DNA of 32,000 nt from positions 1,530,001-1,562,000 of the forward strand of contig CP104013.1 of assembly GCA_025839675.1 (NCBI GenBank), written 5' to 3'. The position numbers and the translations under genes were made by a program. A model generated the notes under the pieces. The model saw only the letters and a program-made list of their open reading frames with translations. It made no database searches and was not told the DNA's origin. Source of the DNA: Candidatus Lokiarchaeum ossiferum. Its GTDB lineage: Archaea; Asgardarchaeota; Lokiarchaeia; Sigyniarchaeales; Promethearchaeaceae. Below are positions 405-25,250 of this stretch, in pieces (position 1 is the stretch's first letter; each line of letters opens with the position of its first letter).

Positions 405-1340
405 ATGAAGAAAGCGGATTTTAAATACTACGGTTTATTAGTGATCGCAATGTTTTTCTGGGGTTTGAGTTGGCCGCTTGCACAAATCATGGTAGGACAA
501 GCAACTCCATTTCAGGTTGGATTATTCCGCTTCTTAATTGCCAGCTTACTATACATTATCATTTTATTTTGTACTAACTTTAAAATTATCAAGACATATA
601 CCTGGAAATCTGTTAGAGATTTTACAATTCTTGGATTATTAGGTATTTTTGGATATGGTTTTTTATTCTTAACTGCTATGCAATTTACTACATCATCGCA
701 AGGAGCAGCAATCGCAGGAATACAACCAAGCTTAATCGCTATCGCATCCTTTCTTATTTTTGGTGAGAAATTATATCCAAAATGGAAGTATTTTGGGATA
801 TTATTAAGTTTCTTGGGAGTTTTAACAATTATTGGAATTCAATCCTTCATTGAGTTCAATAAAAATCACCTAATTGGTAATTTTATTGTTTTTATTGCCT
901 TTTTATTCTGGTGCGGGTATACTCTTTATGGCAAAAAAATTATGCAAAAATATTCTTCATTAGAAACCACCACTTGGAGTTCTTTTACAGGTATGCTTAT
1001 GTTTGGGGGAGCAGCTTTAATTGAAAATAGATGGTCCCAACTGGTAAATGTCCCAGCAAGTTTTTGGTGGAATATTTTAATTTTAGGAGTATTTACAACG
1101 GTAGTGGGCTTTTTCTTATATTTTTATGTTATTAATAAAATCGGCGCAGTTCGTTCGGGAGTTTTTATCAACTTAGTTCCCGTCTTTGGAACACTCCTAT
1201 CAATAATCATTTTGAACCAAGAAATTACATGGACCCTTTGGATTGGTTTAGTTTTAATTTCTGGGGGAATACTTATCATCAATTATCCCAAAGATTTTTC
1301 AAATAAAGAACAACTCAAAGAGCAAATGATTTTAGATTAG
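405..1340 (+). CDS. EamA/DMT-family membrane transporter
   Basis: About 10 hydrophobic helices in two similar halves, typical of EamA duplication. The track start at 396 is TTG; the first ATG is at 405 (MKKADFKYYGLL...). Confidence 0.85.
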   Translation: MKKADFKYYGLLVIAMFFWGLSWPLAQIMVGQATPFQVGLFRFLIASLLYIIILFCTNFKIIKTYTWKSVRDFTILGLLGIFGYGFLFLTAMQFTTSSQGAAIAGIQPSLIAIASFLIFGEKLYPKWKYFGILLSFLGVLTIIGIQSFIEFNKNHLIGNFIVFIAFLFWCGYTLYGKKIMQKYSSLETTTWSSFTGMLMFGGAALIENRWSQLVNVPASFWWNILILGVFTTVVGFFLYFYVINKIGAVRSGVFINLVPVFGTLLSIIILNQEITWTLWIGLVLISGGILIINYPKDFSNKEQLKEQMILD

Positions 1341-1975
1341 GATAGAATGGATTTTTTTATTAAAATTTGGTAAATTTCGGATGGATTCTTAACGATATAA
1401 GCATCAATACCGATATTTTGAGCACCAATTACATTGTTTGGGACATCATCAAAGAAGAGAGTTCTAGCGGGTTCACAATTAATCTGGTTTAATAATTTTG
1501 AATAAATTTTAGATTCTGGTTTGTGACACTTCATTTCATGAGAACAAAAGATTTGTTTAAAAAATCGAGTTATTTGTGTGAAATGAATTTTCCAGTGGGA
1601 AGCATGCAAAGCATTTGTATTTGAAAGAATATAAAGAGGATATTTTGATTCTAATTGTTCTAAAATTGGAAGAATACCATTAGGAATTCCAAGATGGATA
1701 TTATTCCAGCCTAATTTAAATATGGAGAAATCCCATTCTATCCCTAAAACCTCTGTGAGATAGGTAAAATAATCCATGGAAGAGAGTTTCCCTATTTCAA
1801 AATCATAAAGTACTGAATCAAATTTATAATTCTTTTGAAAAAAATCAAAGGAATATTCGGTTAAATCAGCCCATTTTTCAAATGTTCGAGTGAAAGTGTA
1901 ATTTATAAGAACATTTCCCAAATCAAAGACGATAGCATCATAAGGCAAATTGAGAGTACTAGATTTTTGATCCAC
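1337..1975 (-). CDS. HAD-superfamily hydrolase (subfamily IA-like phosphatase)
   Basis: HAD motifs in order: I 'VFDLGNVL', II 'ILSNTN', III 'CHKPE', IV 'FFDDVPNNVIGA'. GTG start at 1975. Its stop overlaps the convergent EamA stop by 4 nt. Confidence 0.8.
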   Translation of the reverse strand: MDQKSSTLNLPYDAIVFDLGNVLINYTFTRTFEKWADLTEYSFDFFQKNYKFDSVLYDFEIGKLSSMDYFTYLTEVLGIEWDFSIFKLGWNNIHLGIPNGILPILEQLESKYPLYILSNTNALHASHWKIHFTQITRFFKQIFCSHEMKCHKPESKIYSKLLNQINCEPARTLFFDDVPNNVIGAQNIGIDAYIVKNPSEIYQILIKKSILS

Positions 1976-1992
1976 AAAATAGCTAGGAAGCC

Positions 1993-2006
1993 TAAATATT
2001 TAAATA
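1993..2006. promoter_or_regulatory. TATA-like A/T palindrome in a divergent intergenic region
   Basis: 'TAAATATTTAAATA' is centred about 25 nt upstream of the minus-strand GTG at 1975. That spacing fits an archaeal TATA box driving a leaderless mRNA. A near-identical element sits at 4701-4714. Confidence 0.35.
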
Positions 2007-2082
2007 GATTCGATTATATTATTTTCGAAATTATGAAAATTTGTTTTTTGATGAATAAAAAAAAAATTGGGAGAATACATCT

Positions 2083-2973
2083 ATGTACAAATTAATATAC
2101 GCCTTTAGAAGCACAAAAATTGATTTTCGCACCATTTTACTTGCTGCAAGTATTCGATCTTTTGCAGGCAAGTTAAATGAATGTCCGATTATTATTGCCT
2201 ACAATGATGAGCACACTAAAATTTCACATGAACATCAACAAATTCTCAAGACATTAAATGTCTCTCTTATATCTTTCCAACTTTCAAAGGATTTTCATAA
2301 TGATTTTTTTGCTGATTTTGTCAAAGCTGCTGGAATTATTGAAAAGAAAGTCTATAACGAAACAGAAAATTTAGTCTGGTTAGGCCCTGATACTTTGATC
2401 TTCAAAGAACCCACTCATTTTCTTTTACCTGAAGGCATAAAAATTGGATATCGACCTGTTCACCACATCAACATAGGAAGCCTTTTTGGATCCCCAATCG
2501 ATGACTACTGGAATCTAATTTTTAGATTGTGTGAAGTACCTACGGAACGCTTTTTTCCAATGGAAACTCATGTTGATTTAGATATCATTCGCCCCTATTT
2601 CAATGCTGGATCTATTATAACACGCCCAAAAGAAGGTTTATTTCAAATCTGGTGGGAAAAATATCAACAATGGCACCAAAATAAGGAATATCTTGAACTA
2701 TGTAAAGTTAAACCCGCCAATCGCATTTTTTTCCACCAGGCAATCTTATCGGGATTAATTTTAAACCGATACACAAAGAATTCCTTACTAAAACTTCCAA
2801 AAAATTACAATTATCCTCTGCATCTTCACACACAAAATTCCCGAAAAGATAAGCCCAAAGATTTTGAGGATATGATCACAATTCGGTATGAAAACCGTGA
2901 CATTTTAGAGAATATTGCGCTACCTAATCACATAAAAACATGGATATCAAAAGAATTATCAAAAATCGATTAA
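2083..2973 (+). CDS. hypothetical protein with weak GT-A/GT8-like glycosyltransferase motifs
   Basis: 296-aa ORF with ATG start and GGGAG 11 nt upstream. 'WLGPDTLIF', 'YFNAGSIITRP' and 'HQAILSGLI' loosely resemble the GT8 DxD / FNxG / DQDxLN blocks. The functional call is weak. Confidence 0.5.
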   Translation: MYKLIYAFRSTKIDFRTILLAASIRSFAGKLNECPIIIAYNDEHTKISHEHQQILKTLNVSLISFQLSKDFHNDFFADFVKAAGIIEKKVYNETENLVWLGPDTLIFKEPTHFLLPEGIKIGYRPVHHINIGSLFGSPIDDYWNLIFRLCEVPTERFFPMETHVDLDIIRPYFNAGSIITRPKEGLFQIWWEKYQQWHQNKEYLELCKVKPANRIFFHQAILSGLILNRYTKNSLLKLPKNYNYPLHLHTQNSRKDKPKDFEDMITIRYENRDILENIALPNHIKTWISKELSKID

Positions 2974-3452
2974 CGATCATAGAATAATGTGTGCATATGG
3001 GGTTTAAAACCCAAAGATTTCCAAAATGATTGGGATACTTCATTTTTTTCCGCTACGGAAAGTTCAATCCGAGAAATTTCCTTATCCTTAAGCCAATCAA
3101 GCGCTTTTTTAAATAACTGTTGTCCTATATGATGTCGACGAAATTCATTCAACACAACCGTATCAAATATAGACCCTTTTTTTTTGATTTGATATACAGG
3201 AGGATATAATGTTGTTTTCCCCGAAATATATCCAACTATTCTTTTTGAATTAATTTCTTCTGCAACAAATATAAAAGCACTGTCAGTTTCTGAAAAAAAA
3301 GAATGTGCAAAAGTACGGTAGTTTTCAGTGGCCTCTTTACAAGGGGTAAAAATAGAATCAAGTTGTGAATGAAAACGAGTAAGTTCTTCCCATAAATTAA
3401 CAATAGAATCAATATCTGTTTCTTGGGCTCGGCGAATAAGAAAGGATTTCAT
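2970..3452 (-). CDS. GNAT-family N-acetyltransferase
   Basis: 160 aa. Acetyl-CoA binding motif A is 'RRHHIGQQLFKKALDWL', and the C-terminal 'FWKSLGF' is typical of GNATs. Confidence 0.85.
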   Translation of the reverse strand: MKSFLIRRAQETDIDSIVNLWEELTRFHSQLDSIFTPCKEATENYRTFAHSFFSETDSAFIFVAEEINSKRIVGYISGKTTLYPPVYQIKKKGSIFDTVVLNEFRRHHIGQQLFKKALDWLKDKEISRIELSVAEKNEVSQSFWKSLGFKPHMHTLFYDR

Positions 3453-14220: not shown

Positions 14221-14389
14221 AGATTGGTCACCCATTTTTTCTTATTGTAAATATTGGATTTGCAAGTATGGTTTTTTATTCAGTCTTTCTTTCAATACAT
14301 CTCGAAGAACACCTTTTTAATCATTATTGAATTATATAACTGCATATTTACAATTTCCAACCATTTTTCTAAAAGAGGAAAATTCAAAT

Positions 14390-15007
14390 ATGGATAAACT
14401 TGAATTGAGGAAAATTTGTCCCCCATTTTCAGAAATGTCTGAAGAAAAGCAGCAATTATTAATGAAACTACACGTTACAATTAATAGAACCAGAATCAGT
14501 TCTAACCAAACTCAATTCATCGTTGAAGTAGATCAAAATAATATTGTGCGATATATTTTGATTGATGCTGGAAAATCATATACTTCACCCAAAATACTTG
14601 AATTAGTTGAAGAGATCCCTTTGTTATTTCCTGATCTTCTAAAATTGTACTGTGATATTACAGGAATGTGGAAAATTCCAGTTGTTTGGGGATCTCTCCG
14701 AAATCTTATTCTTTTAAGGTGTGGTAATGATTTGGGACCACTCCAATCTTTCCCTTTTTCATCTTTGTGTAATTTAAAATACCTCGAATTGTGGGGTAAT
14801 TTTTCATTTCTGCCGGAATCGATAGGCGCTCTCCAGTATTTAGAAGAAATTCACATCATTTCTTGTCACAAATTAAAAAACTTACCATTATTTTTTATGC
14901 ATCTCCCCTCTCTCCAAAACCTACATATCCGAGATTGTCCACAATTAACTATCTCAAAATTGCTTTACGACAACCTTTGCAAGCAGTCTAAGTTCAAGTT
15001 TGATTGA
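14390..15007 (+). CDS. small leucine-rich-repeat (LRR) protein
   Basis: The track ORF starts at TTG 14327. An in-frame ATG at 14390 is preceded by AAGAGGAAA. LRR units: 'LRNLILLRCGNDLGPLQSFP', 'LCNLKYLELWGNFSFLPESIGA', 'LQYLEEIHIISCHKLKNLPLFFMH' and 'LPSLQNLHIRDCPQLT'. Confidence 0.7.
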   Translation: MDKLELRKICPPFSEMSEEKQQLLMKLHVTINRTRISSNQTQFIVEVDQNNIVRYILIDAGKSYTSPKILELVEEIPLLFPDLLKLYCDITGMWKIPVVWGSLRNLILLRCGNDLGPLQSFPFSSLCNLKYLELWGNFSFLPESIGALQYLEEIHIISCHKLKNLPLFFMHLPSLQNLHIRDCPQLTISKLLYDNLCKQSKFKFD

Positions 15008-15414: not shown

Positions 15415-15492
15415 TGGTGGGAGATAAGGGATTCGAACCCCCGACATCTGGCTCCGAAGGCCAGCGCCATATCCAGGCTAGACTAACCCCCC
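15415..15492 (-). tRNA. tRNA-Arg (anticodon UCG), CCA encoded
   Basis: Reverse complement: GGGGGGT-TA-GTCT-AGCCTGGATA-TGGC-G-CTGGC-CTTCGGA-GCCAG-ATGTC-GGGGG-TTCGAAT-CCCTT-ATCTCCC-A-CCA. It folds by hand into a cloverleaf with a 7-bp acceptor stem (two G-U pairs), 5-bp anticodon stem, loop CU-UCG-GA, T-loop TTCGAAT and a 5-nt variable loop. The D stem has one U-U mismatch. Confidence 0.9.
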
Positions 15493-15953: not shown

Positions 15954-17639
15954 TTATTTTTCAATAATGTAGGCCATGGATTTTTTCCCCTTTTTTTCAA
16001 GTCGGATTAAATTTGCCTCAACTAACTTATCCAAGTGATATTTAATTGTCTTTCGATTCAACTCCATCCGAGTTGCAATGCGATTTTGAATTATGCCGGG
16101 GTTTTCTGAAATAATCTCAAAGATTTGCAGTGTTTTCTTACTTTTCGCAATCTTGGGATTAAAATTAGCGAAGGGATTTTTTTCTAAATATGGAAAAAAG
16201 ACAATATAATTGCCTACTCTTTGTTTGTAAATAATTTTATAGGTTTCAAGGATATCTAAATGCCATGCTAAATTACTTGGGGATGTGTCGATCTGCCGTA
16301 ATAATTCGCTATAATGAATTCCGGCTTCATCGATGATAAGGTCTATTAATCTACTGCGAAACTCATTTTCTAACACTTCTTCCATCGATAATCGATGGGG
16401 AAATGTGTTCATTGGAAGAAATCGGTCTGTTAGGTAATGGCGATATTGTTCCTTAGACATCGCAAACCCAAATATAATAACTATCAACCCAAGTAATGAA
16501 AAGATATAAAATAAGGGCTCATTCAACAAAGTAGAAATATTAAAAACAAAGGGATCAATTATAATTCCGATAACACCCATCTTAGGATCATGAAAAATAT
16601 GGTCTCCTCTAGGATAATTGAGATATAATATCGAATTTTCATCATTAAAACTCACTAAGACATCTCTATGCACATTATCAACAAGAACCGAATTTTCCCA
16701 ACTGAACATCCCTGAAAAAGAATTATCAGTAGTATGTAATCCATTCTCATTTTGGGAATACCCCTTTTTTTCATCTTCGGTTTCATCTTCATACTCATAC
16801 TCTTTATCCGATTCTAATGAAGTAGAGAGTGCAATTTGAGAGAAGTTGGATAAGAAAGGAAAATTCGAGATCTCTATGTCAAACTTCATCTGAGTAGGAG
16901 TCTGTATAGTTCCACTAATGTTTTCAAATTCTTCAACAAAGTAAAACCTTAAGAGAAAAACATCATCGATTGTGGAAATTGTTAAGATGTGAATCGTTGA
17001 ATTTGATAAAGTTGTGGAAGTTGAATAATTTATGGGATAAAATTGTGGAAATTCATAAGTTTGAATTATCTCATCGACATTTGGATTATATACATCATTG
17101 TTATTGATGTCTATAAATTCAATCAGATTTGAAAAGAATATTTCGAATTTCAATTTGATTTCGTCCGAATTATACTCTGATTCATATTCTAATTCTAATC
17201 CCACTCCAATATCGGATATTTTTACGCTGAATTGAATTTTATCTTTCATTGATTCCATTTTTCGAACGGATTGAATTTTAGCTTCTTCAGACGAAACTTC
17301 AATCTCCAGTTCTCGTTCATTTTCCTGTTCTTTTTCATCCTTAATCTTATCGTTATCTTTATCTTCTGGATCTTCCGGTTCTTCGGGGTCTTCGGGATCT
17401 TCCGGTTCTTCGGGGTCTTCGGGATCTTCCGGTTCTTCGAGGTCTTCGGGATCTTCGAGGTCTTCGGGATCTTCGGGATCTTCGGGATTTTCAGAATTTT
17501 TAGTAATATCTGCACCCATTTCATCAGAAGTAGAGGTTTTTTGAAATGAAGTCGCTGCATCCCATAGAAAAATATTTGCAAATAATCCTATAATTAGAAT
17601 AAACCCAATACTTCTGCGATGTTTTGATACAAGATTCAT
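15954..17639 (-). CDS. membrane-tethered protein: acidic-repeat linker + uncharacterised ectodomain + TM helix + two cytoplasmic winged-helix DNA-binding domains
   Basis: 561 aa. N-terminal anchor at residues 9-25 follows 'KHRRS'. (PED/PEE)n occupies residues 50-93, and ectodomain residues ~110-360 are homologous to the upstream ORF. The TM helix is 'LFYIFSLLGLIVIIFGFAM' (375-394). Two ArsR/MarR-like wHTH units follow: 'IHYSELLRQIDTSPSNLAWHLDILETYKIIYKQRVGNYIVFF' and 'IIQNRIATRMELNRKTIKYHLDKLVEANLIRLEKKGKKSMAYI'. Confidence 0.8.
   Translation of the reverse strand: MNLVSKHRRSIGFILIIGLFANIFLWDAATSFQKTSTSDEMGADITKNSENPEDPEDPEDLEDPEDLEEPEDPEDPEEPEDPEDPEEPEDPEDKDNDKIKDEKEQENERELEIEVSSEEAKIQSVRKMESMKDKIQFSVKISDIGVGLELEYESEYNSDEIKLKFEIFFSNLIEFIDINNNDVYNPNVDEIIQTYEFPQFYPINYSTSTTLSNSTIHILTISTIDDVFLLRFYFVEEFENISGTIQTPTQMKFDIEISNFPFLSNFSQIALSTSLESDKEYEYEDETEDEKKGYSQNENGLHTTDNSFSGMFSWENSVLVDNVHRDVLVSFNDENSILYLNYPRGDHIFHDPKMGVIGIIIDPFVFNISTLLNEPLFYIFSLLGLIVIIFGFAMSKEQYRHYLTDRFLPMNTFPHRLSMEEVLENEFRSRLIDLIIDEAGIHYSELLRQIDTSPSNLAWHLDILETYKIIYKQRVGNYIVFFPYLEKNPFANFNPKIAKSKKTLQIFEIISENPGIIQNRIATRMELNRKTIKYHLDKLVEANLIRLEKKGKKSMAYIIEK
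17362..17492. repeat. in-frame tandem repeat (27-nt units built of 9-nt subunits) encoding (PED/PEE)n
   Basis: 'ggatcttccggttcttcggggtcttcg' occurs identically at 17368-17394 and 17395-17421. A third copy with one mismatch is at 17422-17448, followed by one 18-nt and two 9-nt partial units. Confidence 0.9.
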
Positions 17640-17705
17640 TTTAAGAACTCACTTTAGGAAGATACTTAAAAAAAGAAAGAGAAATCTTTCTAAAAAAACT
17701 ATTTA

Positions 17706-18896
17706 TTACTTCTTTTTCTTAAAAACAATTAACGCAATTGAAATTCCTGCAATGCCAAACATAATCCAAAGAGGATATCCAGGAATATTTGCAATCAAAT
17801 CTGAAATAGCTCCGTCAGTTGGATTGGTTGATACATCGGTTGACATCATAGGTGATTCTGTAAGTAATCCTTGAACACCTATTTTTGGATCATGATATAT
17901 ATTAGTTCCATGAGGGTAATTGAAGAATATTTTCTCATCATTGACATCAATATCATCTGCTGAAACGGGATTGACTAGTACATCTTCACTCATCCCGTCG
18001 ATATTTGCATATTCTGCCCATGTAAAGGCGGCGGCAAACCCATTCATTACACTTGCAAGTCCTGATTCTTGAACTGCGAATCCATTCACTTCATCTTCTG
18101 TATCGTGTTCTACAGCATATTCGGATTCGGATTCTAATTTTGTGTACAGTGCTAAACGAGATGTTGAATTCAAGAATGGAAAGTCGTTTATTTCAATATC
18201 AAGTTTCACTTGGGTGGGAGTAATTGTGGTGGAATTCACGTTCATAAATTCTCCTGCCGCAAATAAATGGATAGTAAATACATCATCAGCAGTGCCAATT
18301 TTAATGTAATGGAGAACTGAAGAATCATTTTGTGTTATTGCGGTATATTCCGGATCTTTGAATGTATCTATTAGGTATTCTTGCAGAATAGTGTCATTGG
18401 ATTTATTAAACATTCCATCTCCATCAATATCTACGTATTCAATGATTTTTTTAAACACGGTCTTGAATTCCACTTCCAATTCAGATTCGGTTGTCGCATT
18501 TTCGTATTCAGACTCAAACTCGAGCTTAAGCGCAATTCCATCATCCCAATGAATTTTCACTTGAAATTTGTTAGTGACATTTCCGTGTTCCATCTTTGAT
18601 TCAATTTGAATTTCATTTTCTGATACTTCGATCTGAACTTCACGTTTATTTTCATCTTCATATTCATCATCGATGTCATCATTATCCTCATCAATATCTT
18701 CATCTTTAGCAAGATTTTCATCTATGCTATCGTTTGTTTCTTCATCTTCATTGTCATCAGTTTCATTTACCGTATTCAAACTGATTCCAGCATTCCTTTC
18801 ACTCTCTAGTGAGGTATTATAAATTTGACCATTCACAATACCTAAAGAAAGAAAGAATGCTCCCAATAAAACCAAACCAATTAATTTTTTTTTCAT
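17706..18896 (-). CDS. cell-surface acidic protein, paralog of the ectodomain of 15954-17639
   Basis: 396 aa. Signal peptide 'MKKKLIGLVLLGAFFLSLGIVNG', then a D/E/N-rich linker. A DxDxDG loop 'VDIDGDGMFNKSND' lies at nt 18393-18431. Conserved blocks are shared with the downstream gene. C-terminal tail: 'IPGYPLWIMFGIAGISIALIVFKKKK'. Confidence 0.8.
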   Translation of the reverse strand: MKKKLIGLVLLGAFFLSLGIVNGQIYNTSLESERNAGISLNTVNETDDNEDEETNDSIDENLAKDEDIDEDNDDIDDEYEDENKREVQIEVSENEIQIESKMEHGNVTNKFQVKIHWDDGIALKLEFESEYENATTESELEVEFKTVFKKIIEYVDIDGDGMFNKSNDTILQEYLIDTFKDPEYTAITQNDSSVLHYIKIGTADDVFTIHLFAAGEFMNVNSTTITPTQVKLDIEINDFPFLNSTSRLALYTKLESESEYAVEHDTEDEVNGFAVQESGLASVMNGFAAAFTWAEYANIDGMSEDVLVNPVSADDIDVNDEKIFFNYPHGTNIYHDPKIGVQGLLTESPMMSTDVSTNPTDGAISDLIANIPGYPLWIMFGIAGISIALIVFKKKK

Positions 18897-19036
18897 AATA
18901 AGCTCTAAACATCACATCTCGTGAAGGATATATAAAGAAATTGGGAGGATTTTGACCCTACAAATTTGTATATGCAAGTTTTTAGAAATTTACCGGTCCC
19001 TTGCTTTTTATCTTCTTAGTCAGTCTATCATTATTT

Positions 19037-19288
19037 ATGGTAGTTACTCATCCGTTTAAAGTTGCGTTAGAAAAAGAAATTGCGACTTGGAACAATTATC
19101 GTCGGGGGCTTCGGCCAGAGGATCGTCTATATTTTGATGAAGTCATGAATGCAGCTCGAAAACATTGGAAAGAAATAGGGGCTTGTCAACGATTGGTACC
19201 GATGGAACCGATTTTTCTTAGCGTGATGGTAGAACAACAAAGAAAATTGGAAGAATTGAAAAAAGAATTGAAACAAATAATGATATGA
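19037..19288 (+). CDS. small hypothetical protein (helical, charged)
   Basis: The track ORF starts at TTG 19001; an in-frame ATG is at 19037 (MVVTHPFKVALEKEIATWNNYRRGLRPEDRLYFDEVMNAARKHW...). Composition is balanced and protein-like, and it is divergent from 17706-18896. No family recognised. Confidence 0.45.
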   Translation: MVVTHPFKVALEKEIATWNNYRRGLRPEDRLYFDEVMNAARKHWKEIGACQRLVPMEPIFLSVMVEQQRKLEELKKELKQIMI

Positions 19289-20466: not shown

Positions 20467-21594
20467 ATGCAATTTGACTTATTTTACCATGTGGTAAGAA
20501 AATTTAACAAAAGAAGAAATATCATTATGTTCGGATGTGGAACATTGATATTATTATCAACGATCATGATTTATTCAGAAAGTGCGATGGGAGATACCCA
20601 ATTAATAACGCAAAATATGAGTGACACACCAAAATCAGCCACAAATTATGGACATCTTCAGATATCAGAGCAAAATAATTGGTCCACCTATCCAGAAATC
20701 GCCCAGGGAAAAGGAACATATGATGAACCATATATTATCGACGGGGTCACTTTTGATGCAAATTACCTGAAATTTTCCTTGAAGATATCAAATACTCAAG
20801 ATTATATGATATTTCGGAATTGTGTCTTTAATGGGTCCTATAATGGTGATAGTGGTTCGTTCATAATCGATTCATGCTCCAATATTGACATCATCAGCTG
20901 TGAAATTATCAATAATGAACAGACGGGATTATTTATTAAAGATTCACAGAATATTACTGTTTTTCAGACGACGATTGAATATAATTCTGACACAGGTATA
21001 TCATGTTCAAATTCTTCCAATATCACTTTTGAATCGAATATAATTGAGGCTACTGATGGTATAGGAATCCTGATCGAATCAAATTCACACAATATTGAGA
21101 TTTTAAAAAATGGTATTGGTTATAATGAAATTGGAATAAAAATTATGTCTTCGAGCTCGTATGTCAATGTTACTGAGAATGATTTTGATGGGAACTCAAA
21201 TTATCATGTGATACTCGTTCAATCATCATTTAACAGTATCATTGGAAATACATTATCTGAAAATGATGGAAATGAAATCATCGATGAAAGCAATGATGAA
21301 ACAAATACAATAAGGGATAATAGTATTACATATCTTCTTGGGGAATTCTATTTAGAGCAAGATTATATGTTGCTAGTTTATTATGGATTAATTATTGGAA
21401 TAGTTATAACCGCTGTCATAATAGGGCGGATAAGAAAAAGAAAACGTTCTGCAAATAAACAAAAGATTAACGTAAATCGAATAAAGGATTTTTGTCCCCA
21501 TTGTGGTGAAATTTTGCCAAAAATTCCACATAAAGAGATCTCTAATCAACCAAGAGTTAATTATTGTGAACATTGTGGAGAAAAAATACTTTAA
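20467..21594 (+). CDS. surface right-handed beta-helix (PbH1-repeat) protein with a C-terminal TM helix and cytoplasmic zinc ribbon
   Basis: GAGGAG lies about 10 nt upstream of the ATG. N-terminal anchor 'IIMFGCGTLILLSTIMIY'. About 22-residue repeats such as 'SNIDIISCEIINNEQTGLFIKDSQNITVFQTTIEYNSDTGISCSNSSNITFESNIIEATDGIGILIESNSHNIEILKN' resemble NosD/pectate-lyase-like parallel beta-helix proteins. TM helix 'LLVYYGLIIGIVITAVIIG' is followed by 'RIRKRKR', then 'CPHCGE...(17)...CEHCGE'. Confidence 0.8.
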   Translation: MQFDLFYHVVRKFNKRRNIIMFGCGTLILLSTIMIYSESAMGDTQLITQNMSDTPKSATNYGHLQISEQNNWSTYPEIAQGKGTYDEPYIIDGVTFDANYLKFSLKISNTQDYMIFRNCVFNGSYNGDSGSFIIDSCSNIDIISCEIINNEQTGLFIKDSQNITVFQTTIEYNSDTGISCSNSSNITFESNIIEATDGIGILIESNSHNIEILKNGIGYNEIGIKIMSSSSYVNVTENDFDGNSNYHVILVQSSFNSIIGNTLSENDGNEIIDESNDETNTIRDNSITYLLGEFYLEQDYMLLVYYGLIIGIVITAVIIGRIRKRKRSANKQKINVNRIKDFCPHCGEILPKIPHKEISNQPRVNYCEHCGEKIL

Positions 21595-23748: not shown

Positions 23749-25209
23749 TTACTCCTTTAATTCCAAATCATCCAGAGCTTTATTACGACGGGTTTGAATT
23801 TCTTTAACTTTTTCCGTATTGAGGGAAAATAAGGACGCAAATACAACCCCGATAATTAATGCACAGGCGGGAAAAATCGACATTAAAAGGCGCAAACCCA
23901 GTTGTTGTTTCGGAGTCACAGCAACCAAATCCACTTCTTCCCACCCATTATATGAGGTAAACACGATATTGATGCAAATAATGATCAAAATAGTAGCTAA
24001 ACGGATGAAGACCGCATGAACTCCAAAAAAGGAAGCTTCCCGTCGCTGATGGGTACGCAACTCATCTTCATCAATAACATTGGAAATATTCCGATCAATA
24101 AAATAGGGGCCACCTCCAAAACCTATTCCAATAAAAGCCATGGCGATCATAGCACCTACATATTCAGTAATGAAATACAATGGAATTAAGGAAACAGCCC
24201 AAAAGATCATACATACGATAAAAGCTTGACGACTACCAATTTTTTTATCCAACCATGACCAAAATAGCACACCGGGGATGGAACATAGAAACACAGTCAC
24301 TAATAACAAGGTCGTTTCAAACGCATTTTTACTTAAATCGAATTGAATGGAGGCATAGATCGGTAAAACCATCGGTAAAATCCCAAAGACATACCAATTC
24401 ATGGTGGAAGCCATTACGATTAAAATAAAATCTTTGTTTTTGAACGTATATTTGAACGAATCAAGCAAGGAAAGGGTTTTTTGTTCTTGAAGTTCTTCCA
24501 AAGGACGTTCCCGAATTCCAGTTTTGATATGCCCTAACATTGTTACTAAAATGCACACCCCAAAGATTGCCCCGCAAAGAATATACTGGCGACGAGTTAT
24601 TGCATCTGTCCCTACTAAATCAGTTATTACTATTCCCGGTAAGGCAAAGGCAACTAGTAATCCAACCACCATTAAAATCCGACGAGAGCGCCCCACTTCT
24701 TCACGAGCTCGATCCGATCGAAACATTTCAGGATAAAGGGAAGTATGATTCAATGAGTAGGTTGTATAGAATGTGTCAAATAAGATCATACTGATCGCCA
24801 TATAAATGGCAATAACAGTATCGCTCCCTTCAATAGGTGTAAAAAGAAACACCATCACAAGCGGTAGAGGAATGATCATAGAAATTATCCAAGGTCGTCG
24901 CCGCCCACCACCAAATTTCTTCGTACGGGTTCTATCAGAGAGAGCACCAAGAATTGGATCATTAAAAGCATTGAAGATCGACCAGATTATGAAGACAATG
25001 GTTACGGTATCAATTGGGAGGCCTATCACAACGGAATAAAAGGTGAAGATTAAAAAGGAAAATCCTTGATAGGCAATTAAATCGGGTATTTCCCCAAGAG
25101 AAAACCCAAGATTCAGTTTTAAGGGAACTTCCCGTCCCGACTTGGGTTCAAGAGTATTACTTTGTGAGTCCATAGTATTATTCAACGGTTGACCTAAAAA
25201 AGACTTCAT
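23749..25209 (-). CDS. MFS transporter, glycoside-pentoside-hexuronide (GPH) cation symporter-like
   Basis: About 12 TM helices. The GPH signature after TM2 is 'NAFNDPILGALSDRTRTKKFGGGRRRPW'. The track start at 25227 is TTG; the first in-frame ATG is at 25209. Confidence 0.85.
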   Translation of the reverse strand: MKSFLGQPLNNTMDSQSNTLEPKSGREVPLKLNLGFSLGEIPDLIAYQGFSFLIFTFYSVVIGLPIDTVTIVFIIWSIFNAFNDPILGALSDRTRTKKFGGGRRRPWIISMIIPLPLVMVFLFTPIEGSDTVIAIYMAISMILFDTFYTTYSLNHTSLYPEMFRSDRAREEVGRSRRILMVVGLLVAFALPGIVITDLVGTDAITRRQYILCGAIFGVCILVTMLGHIKTGIRERPLEELQEQKTLSLLDSFKYTFKNKDFILIVMASTMNWYVFGILPMVLPIYASIQFDLSKNAFETTLLLVTVFLCSIPGVLFWSWLDKKIGSRQAFIVCMIFWAVSLIPLYFITEYVGAMIAMAFIGIGFGGGPYFIDRNISNVIDEDELRTHQRREASFFGVHAVFIRLATILIIICINIVFTSYNGWEEVDLVAVTPKQQLGLRLLMSIFPACALIIGVVFASLFSLNTEKVKEIQTRRNKALDDLELKE

Positions 25210-25250
25210 TTTCAAGATCTGAAACAAAATACCCCTAAAAAGTGATTATA

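Follow-up and report, generated by a model that had tools for sequence, protein, structure and literature searches.

Introduction

How might an archaeon couple the state of its cell surface to the transcription of the genes which build that surface? This question is raised by a pair of neighboring genes in Candidatus Lokiarchaeum ossiferum, located within a 32,000-nt stretch of contig CP104013.1 (positions 1,530,001 to 1,562,000 of the forward strand; this whole stretch is called the window, and its own numbering is used throughout). Gene B (17706..18896, minus strand) encodes a surface protein of 396 amino acids, and gene A (15954..17639, minus strand) encodes a protein of 561 amino acids in which a paralogous extracellular domain is joined across the membrane to two winged helix-turn-helix (wHTH) units. 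A first-pass annotation, made from the sequence alone, had suggested that A may be a one-component, outside-in transcription factor of the ToxR/CadC kind. Here, the balance of the evidence tips modestly toward A being a type-I transmembrane transcription regulator, which would sense an extracellular condition shared with B and act on the promoter of the gene cassette. The transcription-regulator reading has gained support from two sides, namely the fusion and fission of the receptor with a soluble wHTH protein across genomes and a conserved promoter element that follows the cassette.

Results

A gene pair sharing one ectodomain

Genes B and A are adjacent open reading frames (ORFs) on the minus strand, separated by 66 nt, and the sequence confirmed the coordinates first given for them. 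Their products align by BLASTP with 37% identity over 317 amino acids (E=3e-59). All of the colinear blocks which had been noted by eye fall inside this alignment, and the earlier claim that both genes encode one common ectodomain, an all-β domain of approximately 260 amino acids, is upheld by it. The alignment also runs on through the C-terminal transmembrane (TM) helix of B and the second TM helix of A. With 100% identity, the product of B corresponds both to protein P0257 and to NEF87_001252 of Ca. Lokiarchaeum ossiferum, which carries the UniRef label "EF-hand domain-containing"; the exact product of A has no record in the protein collection, although that of B is present. No paper found in a literature search cites the locus tags NEF87_001251-3.

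Protein B has a signal peptide at amino acids 5-23, a D/E-rich linker (26 acidic residues out of 60), the ectodomain (17862..18647, minus strand; amino acids 84-345), which was modeled by AlphaFold2 (AF2) as an all-β supersandwich with a predicted local distance difference test (pLDDT) score above 90, and a C-terminal Loki-CTERM sorting signal (17709..17786, minus strand; amino acids 371-396) made up of an IPGY motif, a TM helix and KKKK. The C-terminus passes the NCBIfam model for Loki-CTERM (NF033507) with 29.9 bits against a cutoff of 19.9, and relatives of B carry the NCBI name Loki-CTERM proteins. Hydropathy, the AF2 model and the NF033507 match together reproduce the layout originally described for B: signal peptide, D/E linker, domain and TM/KKKK anchor. 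In the family alignment, IPG[FY] is kept in B-like proteins and missing from A-like proteins; protein A gave no match to NF033507, the PG[FY] motif being lost at the homologous position. The end of B resembles PGF-CTERM/archaeosortase-type signals in its succession of IPGY, TM helix and basic cluster. No established processing enzyme or anchor fate goes with Loki-CTERM, however, and no paper found in our literature search mentions it.

Protein A begins with a TM/signal segment at amino acids 11-29 by hydropathy, preceded by KHRRS, and continues with a (PED)n stalk (17361..17492, minus strand), whose coding sequence is a 9-nt tandem repeat (14.7 copies, 27-nt super-period; Tandem Repeats Finder). 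A public Logan assembly breaks off within this repeat, for which copy-number variation or an annotation problem is possible. The ectodomain of A, paralogous to that of B, follows (16560..17318, minus strand; amino acids 108-360; AF2 pLDDT ~95), and then TM2 (16458..16514, minus strand), placed at amino acids 376-394 by hydropathy and modeled as a helix at amino acids 375-405. Immediately after TM2, the family alignment contains a conserved juxtamembrane motif, MSK.EYR.YL..R.......HRLSME. The AF2 models built from family alignments were confident (mean pLDDT of 85.1 and 84.5 for the two proteins, with the domain above 90), and that of A comprises an all-β ectodomain, a single long TM helix and two canonical H-H-H-β-β winged helices.

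We infer that the ectodomain of A lies outside the cell and the tandem wHTH module inside, because the B-like homologs are clearly exported (signal peptide and C-terminal anchor), because the ectodomain is flanked by two hydrophobic segments whose positive charges lie on the sides facing away from it, and because it carries N-glycosylation sequons. A three-TM topology, which would place the wHTH units outside, was considered and rejected: the candidate third segment, amino acids 354-372, aligns with the last β-strand and linker of B-like proteins and was modeled by AF2 as strand plus coil. With that candidate ruled out, the hydropathy, the flanking charges and the AF2 model sustain both the layout of A and the topology proposed for it in the first-pass annotation.

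The cytoplasmic tandem winged-helix module

Both winged-helix units of A score above the Pfam thresholds, which together with the AF2 model substantiates their initial description as ArsR/MarR-like. Winged helix 1 (wH1; 16191..16385, minus strand; amino acids 419-483) matches HTH_HVO_0163_N (PF24266) with 41.2 bits against 31, and winged helix 2 (wH2; 15966..16157, minus strand; amino acids 495-558) matches HTH_24 (PF13412) with 46 bits against 21.9. Protein A is also above the gathering scores of HTH_20 (39.5 against 27) and MarR (27.1 against 24.6) and barely above that of HTH_5 (23.4 against 22). PF24266 takes its name from HVO_0163, which PMC10294847 regards as a transcription factor of the ArsR type. 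The two units differ in charge. The first is acidic (net -5) and is the most conserved segment, with the signature PGIHY.ELLR...SNLAWHLDILETYKII, and the second is strongly basic (net +9; family mean +6.3) and likely represents the DNA-contacting unit. A profile of the winged helices matched, among solved structures, 5duk_A (2.3e-7), the ArsR protein 6j05_A (1e-4) and SlyA; since these are small archaeal and bacterial DNA-binding wHTH proteins, we count them in favor of a regulator. In Foldseek, a single unit superposes on ArsR 6j05_A with a root-mean-square deviation of 1.3 Å over 66 columns.

Two narrower assignments were tried and rejected. Protein A is not an ArsR/SmtB metalloregulator, as it scores 45.3 bits with the HTH_metalloreg model NF033788, under the cutoff of 55, lacks the Cys/His sensing sites (α3N/α5) and contains zero cysteines. 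Nor does it belong to the ToxR/CadC family, as there is no Trans_reg_C match, its DNA-binding domain is ArsR/MarR-type and C-terminal, and its sensor is N-terminal. It does combine a predicted DNA-binding domain with at least one TM region, two of the features that define transmembrane transcription regulators (TTRs) in PMC10269533. On the third, regulation from the membrane in response to an outside cue, the conserved cassette promoter element bears only indirectly.

A second Asgard family (~420 amino acids; P0053-P0097) consists of the same type of double-wHTH module, one TM helix and an unrelated ectodomain of ~190 amino acids without a Pfam match. At two loci (L032, 7871-9055, minus strand; L040, 8355-9506, minus strand), a member is encoded on the strand opposite the cassette, 2-3 kb away. 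Because this second family pairs the module with an unrelated ectodomain, the type-I arrangement of ectodomain, TM helix and two wHTH units is a general Asgard theme.

Fused and split forms of the cassette

Scanning genomes with the ectodomain as seed gave 35 loci, whose ORFs were classed with hidden Markov models (HMMs) for the ectodomain and for the C-terminal module of A; three more fused-type loci (L040, L041 and L042) were added by exact-protein look-up. Asgard labels (Promethearchaeota, Hermod-, Thor-, Hod- and Odinarchaeota) were attached to 34 of the 35. The exception, L038, is a weak match labeled Thermoplasmatales, where two adjacent and very divergent ectodomain paralogs with RRR-tail anchors occur in GC-rich DNA (615-3175) with no wHTH gene nearby; it represents either mis-binning or a rare non-Asgard occurrence.

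The cassette occurs in two forms. In the fused form, the gene for an anchor-only ectodomain protein precedes, on one strand, a gene for an ectodomain, a TM helix and two wHTH units, as in the window, P. syntrophicum MK-D1, L006, L032, L034 and L040. The B-like gene stands directly upstream of the A-like gene in six of the eight fused-type loci. The split form was seen at ~24 loci in ~26 cassettes, including two tandem duplications, and consists of three genes, g1-g2-g3, co-oriented in all. The g1 product has a signal peptide, the ectodomain, a TM helix and a basic tail; the g2 product has a signal peptide, the ectodomain, a TM helix and a conserved helical cytoplasmic tail of ~110 amino acids, for which neither a Pfam nor a PDB relative was found. 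The g3 product is a soluble protein of ~220 amino acids in which an extra N-terminal segment of ~65 amino acids precedes HVO_0163_N and HTH_24, the same domain order as in A, and which matches the profile of the C-terminal part of A at 1e-13 to 1e-19. The g2 tail and the N-terminal segment of g3, both lacking in the fused form, would be the parts that a covalent link makes redundant. Since fusion and fission of this kind are classical evidence of joint function, the receptor-type ectodomain protein and the wHTH protein can be taken to work together. The linkage of the pair in other genomes, on which the first-pass annotation had staked its proposal, thus holds in those six fused-type loci and in all of the ~26 split-type cassettes. 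Clustering of the flanking ORFs gave no conserved third partner such as a protease, an archaeosortase or a transporter.

In a neighbor-joining tree with at least three cassette subfamilies, the g1 and g2 ectodomains of each such subfamily are sister clades. Such clades indicate that the paralogs co-diversify, through either selection for a common ligand or contact or gene conversion, and the pattern fits a shared ligand or mutual contact. In L010 and L019, two complete g1-g2-g3 cassettes belonging to different tree subfamilies stand in tandem on one strand.

Other arrangements were seen at single loci. In Hodarchaeum mangrovi (L021, 3535-6891), two anchor-only ectodomain genes flank a gene for a 269-aa multi-TM protein with an N-terminal ArsR-type wHTH, which is a third way of pairing the ectodomain with a membrane-bound wHTH. 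In a Promethearchaeum metagenome-assembled genome (L004, 5783-7078), a DDE transposase follows the B-like gene at the position expected for the regulator.

A conserved promoter element

A TATA box, TTTATATAT (18928..18936, minus strand), lies ~36 nt upstream of the B ATG in conserved alignment columns. It is followed by the conserved block CACGAGAT (18916-18923, minus strand), and directly upstream of it is a dyad-like element, GGGTCAAAATCCTCCCAAT (18940..18958, minus strand), which is a candidate operator. The 19-mer is unique in the window, where 0.03 chance matches would be expected. The whole block TAGGGTCAAAATCCTCCCAATTTC-TTTATATAT-N-CACGAGAT (18916-18960) is kept upstream in MK-D1, L004, L006 and L032, genomes whose encoded proteins are only ~50% identical to those of the window. 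Moreover, L040 has GGGWGAAA..TCCC(AAT) beside a TATA box in front of g1, and in L041 and L042 the solitary regulator genes are immediately preceded by it. Among the genomes that keep the element, protein identity is only ~40-55%. A strict regular expression for the dyad element matched four times in 424 kb, each time at a cassette promoter, and shuffled sequences averaged 0.75 matches. The element goes with the first gene of the cassette, solitary regulators included.

A different TATA-adjacent motif, TTACCATTT-N-TTTAWATA, was found in the split cassettes, with 10 of its 11 occurrences in 395 kb located at g1 promoters. This distinct motif matches the much higher conservation of g3, whose mean column identity is 63% vs. 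42% for the ectodomains.

The spacer between B and A (17640..17705, minus strand) contains, in order, a T7 run (17692-17698), a hairpin (AGAAAGA-tttc-TCTTTCT, 17674-17691), a further T-run (17668-17673) and a TATA-like sequence, TTTTTAAG, ~30 nt before the A ATG. Orthologous spacers (MK-D1, L034 and L006) likewise have T-runs and then clear TATA boxes. A scan for promoters and terminators of the bacterial type found nothing in the spacer, its model being bacterial and uninformative for an archaeon. Because T-runs and a hairpin are followed by a TATA-like box, and because orthologous spacers are alike, B and A appear to be transcribed separately, the regulated promoter probably serving B and a weaker promoter of its own serving A. 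In MK-D1 and its relatives (L005/L004/L006), a conserved hairpin-like block, CAACTAAAAAAGTTG, occurs between the TATA box and the start codon of the B-like gene; the window is without this block, and its B leader is only ~10 nt long.

A GLMP-like ectodomain

What, then, is the shared domain? The first-pass annotation had recognized no named family for it, and this can no longer be maintained, as GLMP/NCU-G1 (PF15065) proved to be related at the level of the fold and, weakly, of the sequence. In Foldseek searches against the PDB, the luminal domain of GLMP came first both for the B model (8r8q_B, 6.3e-8; 6nyq_C, 2.2e-7) and for the A model (6nyq_C, 1.8e-9, with a TM-score of 0.53 over 335 columns; 8r8q_B, 1.4e-8). 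The next matches, generic glycosidase and YidC β-supersandwich domains, were weaker by 3-4 orders of magnitude. The GLMP luminal domain is a β-sandwich resembling the N-domain of glycoside phosphorylases (PMC11252000). Both models have the GLMP fold. The topology of B is likewise GLMP-like: type-I, with a signal peptide, the domain, one C-terminal TM helix and a KKKK tail.

The sequence evidence is fainter. Full-length A and B matched no ectodomain family in Pfam, and NCU-G1 was not matched at E<=1. The isolated B ectodomain did match NCU-G1 in a colinear manner (12.5 bits, E=0.071), short of the gathering score of 27 bits, so that the window proteins are not formal members of PF15065. Among isolated ectodomains of the family, 14 of 54 matched NCU-G1 (best E 3.6e-4), as did, weakly, 36 of 127 representatives of the broader family (best E=2.3e-7, ~30 bits by extrapolation). 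NCU-G1 was the sole Pfam family matched repeatedly by isolated ectodomains, and the matches were always colinear, with domain residues ~30-180 aligned to profile positions ~40-190. Ten likely family members scanned for the match at E=2.3e-7 gave weaker colinear matches only.

Other comparisons were negative. With hhalign, the ectodomain compared with a single GLMP sequence or with a mammal-only GLMP profile (shallow, Neff 1.9) gave a probability of ~1%. GLMP was not among the matches of the ectodomain profile to PDB sequences, and an HMM of mammalian GLMP found nothing in the Asgard ectodomain family. The GLMP query sequence agrees with 6nyq_C at 403 of 404 residues, and a sequence search with it gave mammals only among the matches listed. 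We consider remote homology of the ectodomain family to GLMP/NCU-G1 probable; it is not proven, because hhalign sees nothing and the window domain reaches 12.5 of the 27 bits. No paper found in our literature search links GLMP with Asgard archaea or NCU-G1 with archaea.

The family itself is large, with 1,744 representatives at 50% identity for E<=1e-3 and 375 for E<=1e-30, and every member with a named taxon belongs to an Asgard lineage. Two acidic loops of the DxDxDG type are conserved. The first-pass annotation had pointed to such a loop; it is present (in B as DIDGDG at amino acids 156-161) and conserved family-wide, E153, D156 and D168 being invariant or nearly so. Calcium binding by these loops is plausible from their sequence. 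Near the membrane-proximal end, all members have an HDPK(I/M)G turn (B amino acids 335-338, 17883-17894; A amino acids 350-353). This turn holds an Asp-Pro bond, for which a structural turn, a metal site and a shedding or autoproteolysis site are candidate roles. Two Pandoravirus proteins in the BFVD also resemble the fold of the B ectodomain (E=7.5e-7 and 1.2e-5), possibly as giant-virus copies of a GLMP-like protein from amoebae.

Neighboring genes

Downstream of A lie a tRNA-Arg(TCG) gene (15415-15492, minus strand) and a gene for a 226-aa leucine-rich-repeat protein (14327-15007, plus strand), whose best Pfam matches are leucine-rich-repeat models of the plant disease-resistance type. A small divergent gene is located upstream of B (19001-19288, plus strand), corresponding to an 83-aa DUF8156 protein in a public assembly. 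At a distance of 1.6 kb from the pair, a 375-aa protein (20467-21594, plus strand) contains a right-handed β-helix (PF13229, E=3.4e-18; NosD) between an N-terminal TM/signal segment and a further TM helix, with a C-terminal CxxC...CxxC zinc ribbon; it is thus another type-I membrane protein with a cytoplasmic tail that binds nucleic acid or protein.

Discussion

Taken together, these data favor a regulator which looks outward with the same domain that its neighbor displays. In the mechanism we propose, the GLMP-like, probably Ca2+-binding acidic ectodomain of A would face outward on its flexible (PED)n stalk and report an extracellular state that also concerns B, through either a common ligand or direct contact between ectodomains. 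The resulting change would pass across the membrane via the single TM helix to the tandem wHTH module, which would act on the dyad abutting the TATA box of the first promoter and so set the expression of the surface protein; where A is solitary, control through the dyad element would set the expression of A itself. The fused regulator may act from the membrane or after proteolytic release. In the split form, which is that of most other Asgard lineages, the receptor tail presumably holds or releases the neighboring soluble wHTH protein.

Several observations weigh against this proposal. Another factor might be what binds the promoter element, or the element might be a sequence near the B recognition element (BRE) whose conservation is unusually strong. 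The regulators of L041 (Harpocratesius) and L042 are solitary, without an adjacent B-like gene, and solitary B-like genes occur in L018, L022, L007 and L004; the pairing of A and B is therefore frequent but not obligatory. The neighbor-joining tree is crude, and its sister clades may reflect gene conversion rather than selection. Finally, wH1 is acidic, and in Foldseek the paired winged helices resemble tandem winged-helix scaffolds from outside the classical transcription factors (RPC34-like 8iue_P, ScpB, SelB and ESCRT-II).

Given this last resemblance, the tandem winged helix could instead be a protein-protein adaptor that links a surface receptor or adhesin pair to ESCRT-type, cytoskeletal or SMC-kleisin-like partners, and for that reason an adaptor role, unlikely in our estimation, is kept as a rival. 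Asgard archaea are rich in ESCRT-II-type winged-helix proteins, the best matches of the paired units are the scaffolds 8iue_P (3.8e-5), ScpB 6juv_A (1.7e-4) and ESCRT-II 3cuq_A (3.8e-4), and an acidic unit as the most conserved part would suit an adaptor. However, these E-values are modest and the TM-scores are at most 0.3, whereas by sequence the units are of the ArsR/MarR/HTH_24 type above the Pfam thresholds. Furthermore, a strongly basic wH2 is found throughout the family, DNA-binding proteins are the nearest sequences of solved structure, and the cassette has a promoter element of its own. Quite unlikely, too, is an arrangement in which the B-like proteins would assist membrane transporters as accessory subunits, in the manner of GLMP with MFSD1, and A would be a co-sensor of transporter or substrate status, much as CadC reads LysP. 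Such a role would agree with GLMP being the top structural match and working as an accessory subunit of a major facilitator superfamily (MFS) protein (PMC11252000), with the solitary g1 genes of L018 (4291-6936) and L022 (5360-9168) adjoining MFS transporters (in L018, an MFS_2 gene 157 nt upstream on the same strand), and with an MFS_2 gene in the window (23749-25227, minus strand) ~5 kb from the pair. Yet no transporter is a conserved neighbor across 36 loci, the sample is tiny, L018 and L022 are sister loci whose MFS proximity may go back to one event, genes of the MFS are common anyway, and no counterpart of the MFSD1-contacting loop of GLMP was identified in the A/B family.

A purely structural role appears very unlikely. 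A and B would then be parts of a heteromeric surface coat or glycocalyx, with a constitutive wHTH tail serving as a tether between nucleoid and membrane or as an autoregulator blind to the outside. The size of the family (375 clusters at E<=1e-30) and the acidic proteins with N-glycosylation sequons and long stalks could be accommodated in this way, and cultured Asgard archaea appear to be without a classical S-layer (PMC11284389), so other abundant surface proteins are to be expected. On the other hand, a dedicated regulator, fused or adjacent, has been kept with the receptor-like paralogs in at least three subfamilies, and receptor-type and anchor-only paralogs remain consistently distinguishable, as is typical of sensor/effector pairs. 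The main text of the MK-D1 glycoproteome paper does not mention DSAG12_03183-5.

The transcription-regulator reading can be placed among known systems. As in the TTRs ToxR, TcpP, CadC and ArnR/ArnR1, a sensor part, TM segments and a cytoplasmic HTH are united in one polypeptide in A. As a class, TTRs occur widely in archaea (PMC10269533), and among their characterised archaeal members are ArnR/ArnR1 of Sulfolobus (PMC6396743). The earlier statement that no characterised archaeal system of this design was known was consequently too broad for the class, and stands for the present variant, in which tandem ArsR-type wHTH units are combined with a displayed paralog. The comparison with ToxR and CadC stands as an analogy of one-protein, outside-in design and not as family membership. 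In those proteins an OmpR-type wHTH is at the N-terminus and the periplasmic sensor at the C-terminus, whereas in A the order is reversed (type-I), the DNA-binding domain is a tandem of ArsR-type wHTH units and the sensor is a GLMP-like β-sandwich. ArnR, for its part, has an N-terminal HTH, C-terminal TM helices and no large ectodomain, unlike A with its large N-terminal one. None of these TTRs is known to have a co-encoded paralog that displays the sensor domain, as B does for A.

In that last respect there is a likeness to the RsgI-SigI system of Clostridium thermocellum, in which the sensor carries the same kind of extracellular modules as the surface and secreted proteins under its regulation, and in which a soluble regulator is held by the cytoplasmic part of the sensor. 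Sensor and effector see the same ligand there, as would be the case for A and B, and the held soluble regulator corresponds to what we propose for the split cassettes. RsgI-SigI is, however, a bacterial sigma/anti-sigma pair with carbohydrate-binding or glycosidase modules, whereas the Asgard cassette uses archaeal wHTH proteins and its parts are fused in the window. The split form also resembles BlaR1-BlaI and MecR1-MecI, where a TM sensor with an extracellular ligand domain stands alongside a soluble winged-helix regulator and the operon is autoregulated, a design point shared with the proposed split cassettes. BlaR1 differs in that its cytoplasmic zinc-protease domain cleaves BlaI, whereas neither a family nor a solved structure was matched by the ~110-aa tail of Asgard g2.

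With GLMP/NCU-G1, the shared features are those of B, i.e., a type-I protein with a signal peptide, a glycosylatable, non-cytoplasmic β-sandwich of ~300 amino acids, one TM helix and a short basic tail. A departs from this short-tail topology by its added wHTH module. The Asgard proteins further differ in being highly acidic, in their DxDxDG loops and invariant HDPK turn, and in being wired to wHTH regulators. GLMP is an accessory subunit of the lysosomal dipeptide transporter MFSD1 (PMC11252000), whereas the Asgard family, with MFS genes beside two solitary g1 loci, has no conserved MFS neighbor. It is conceivable, if doubtful, that the ectodomain family is the archaeal ancestor or sister of eukaryotic GLMP/NCU-G1, i.e., a surface receptor or co-receptor module which before eukaryogenesis was wired by fusion or operon to winged-helix regulators and later came to face the lysosomal lumen. 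The lumen is topologically equivalent to the outside of the cell. More speculatively still, and by analogy with Notch and SREBP, the fused form could be shed at the HDPK turn and then cleaved within the membrane, which would release a transcription factor.

In summary, TTRs as a class, archaea included, were already known. New are the type-I design with tandem ArsR-type wHTH units, the duplication of its sensor domain as a sorted surface protein, the fused and split cassette across Asgard archaea with its promoter element, and the GLMP-like nature of the sensor. The cassette represents a large, Asgard-restricted and previously undescribed family which couples a surface domain directly to gene regulators. 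Because both cultured strains, L. ossiferum and P. syntrophicum MK-D1, carry it, its predictions can be tested now: the cassette offers a defined candidate operator, a surface protein as partner and a soluble predicted DNA-binding fragment. No known organisms are closer to eukaryotes than the Asgard archaea, and both the means by which they sense their surroundings and syntrophic partners and the composition of their S-layer-less surface are little understood. If the link to GLMP is one of true homology, a protein associated with membrane trafficking and the lysosome would join the eukaryotic signature proteins with Asgard roots, which would suggest a possible archaeal origin for GLMP and offer a hint at its ancestral job.

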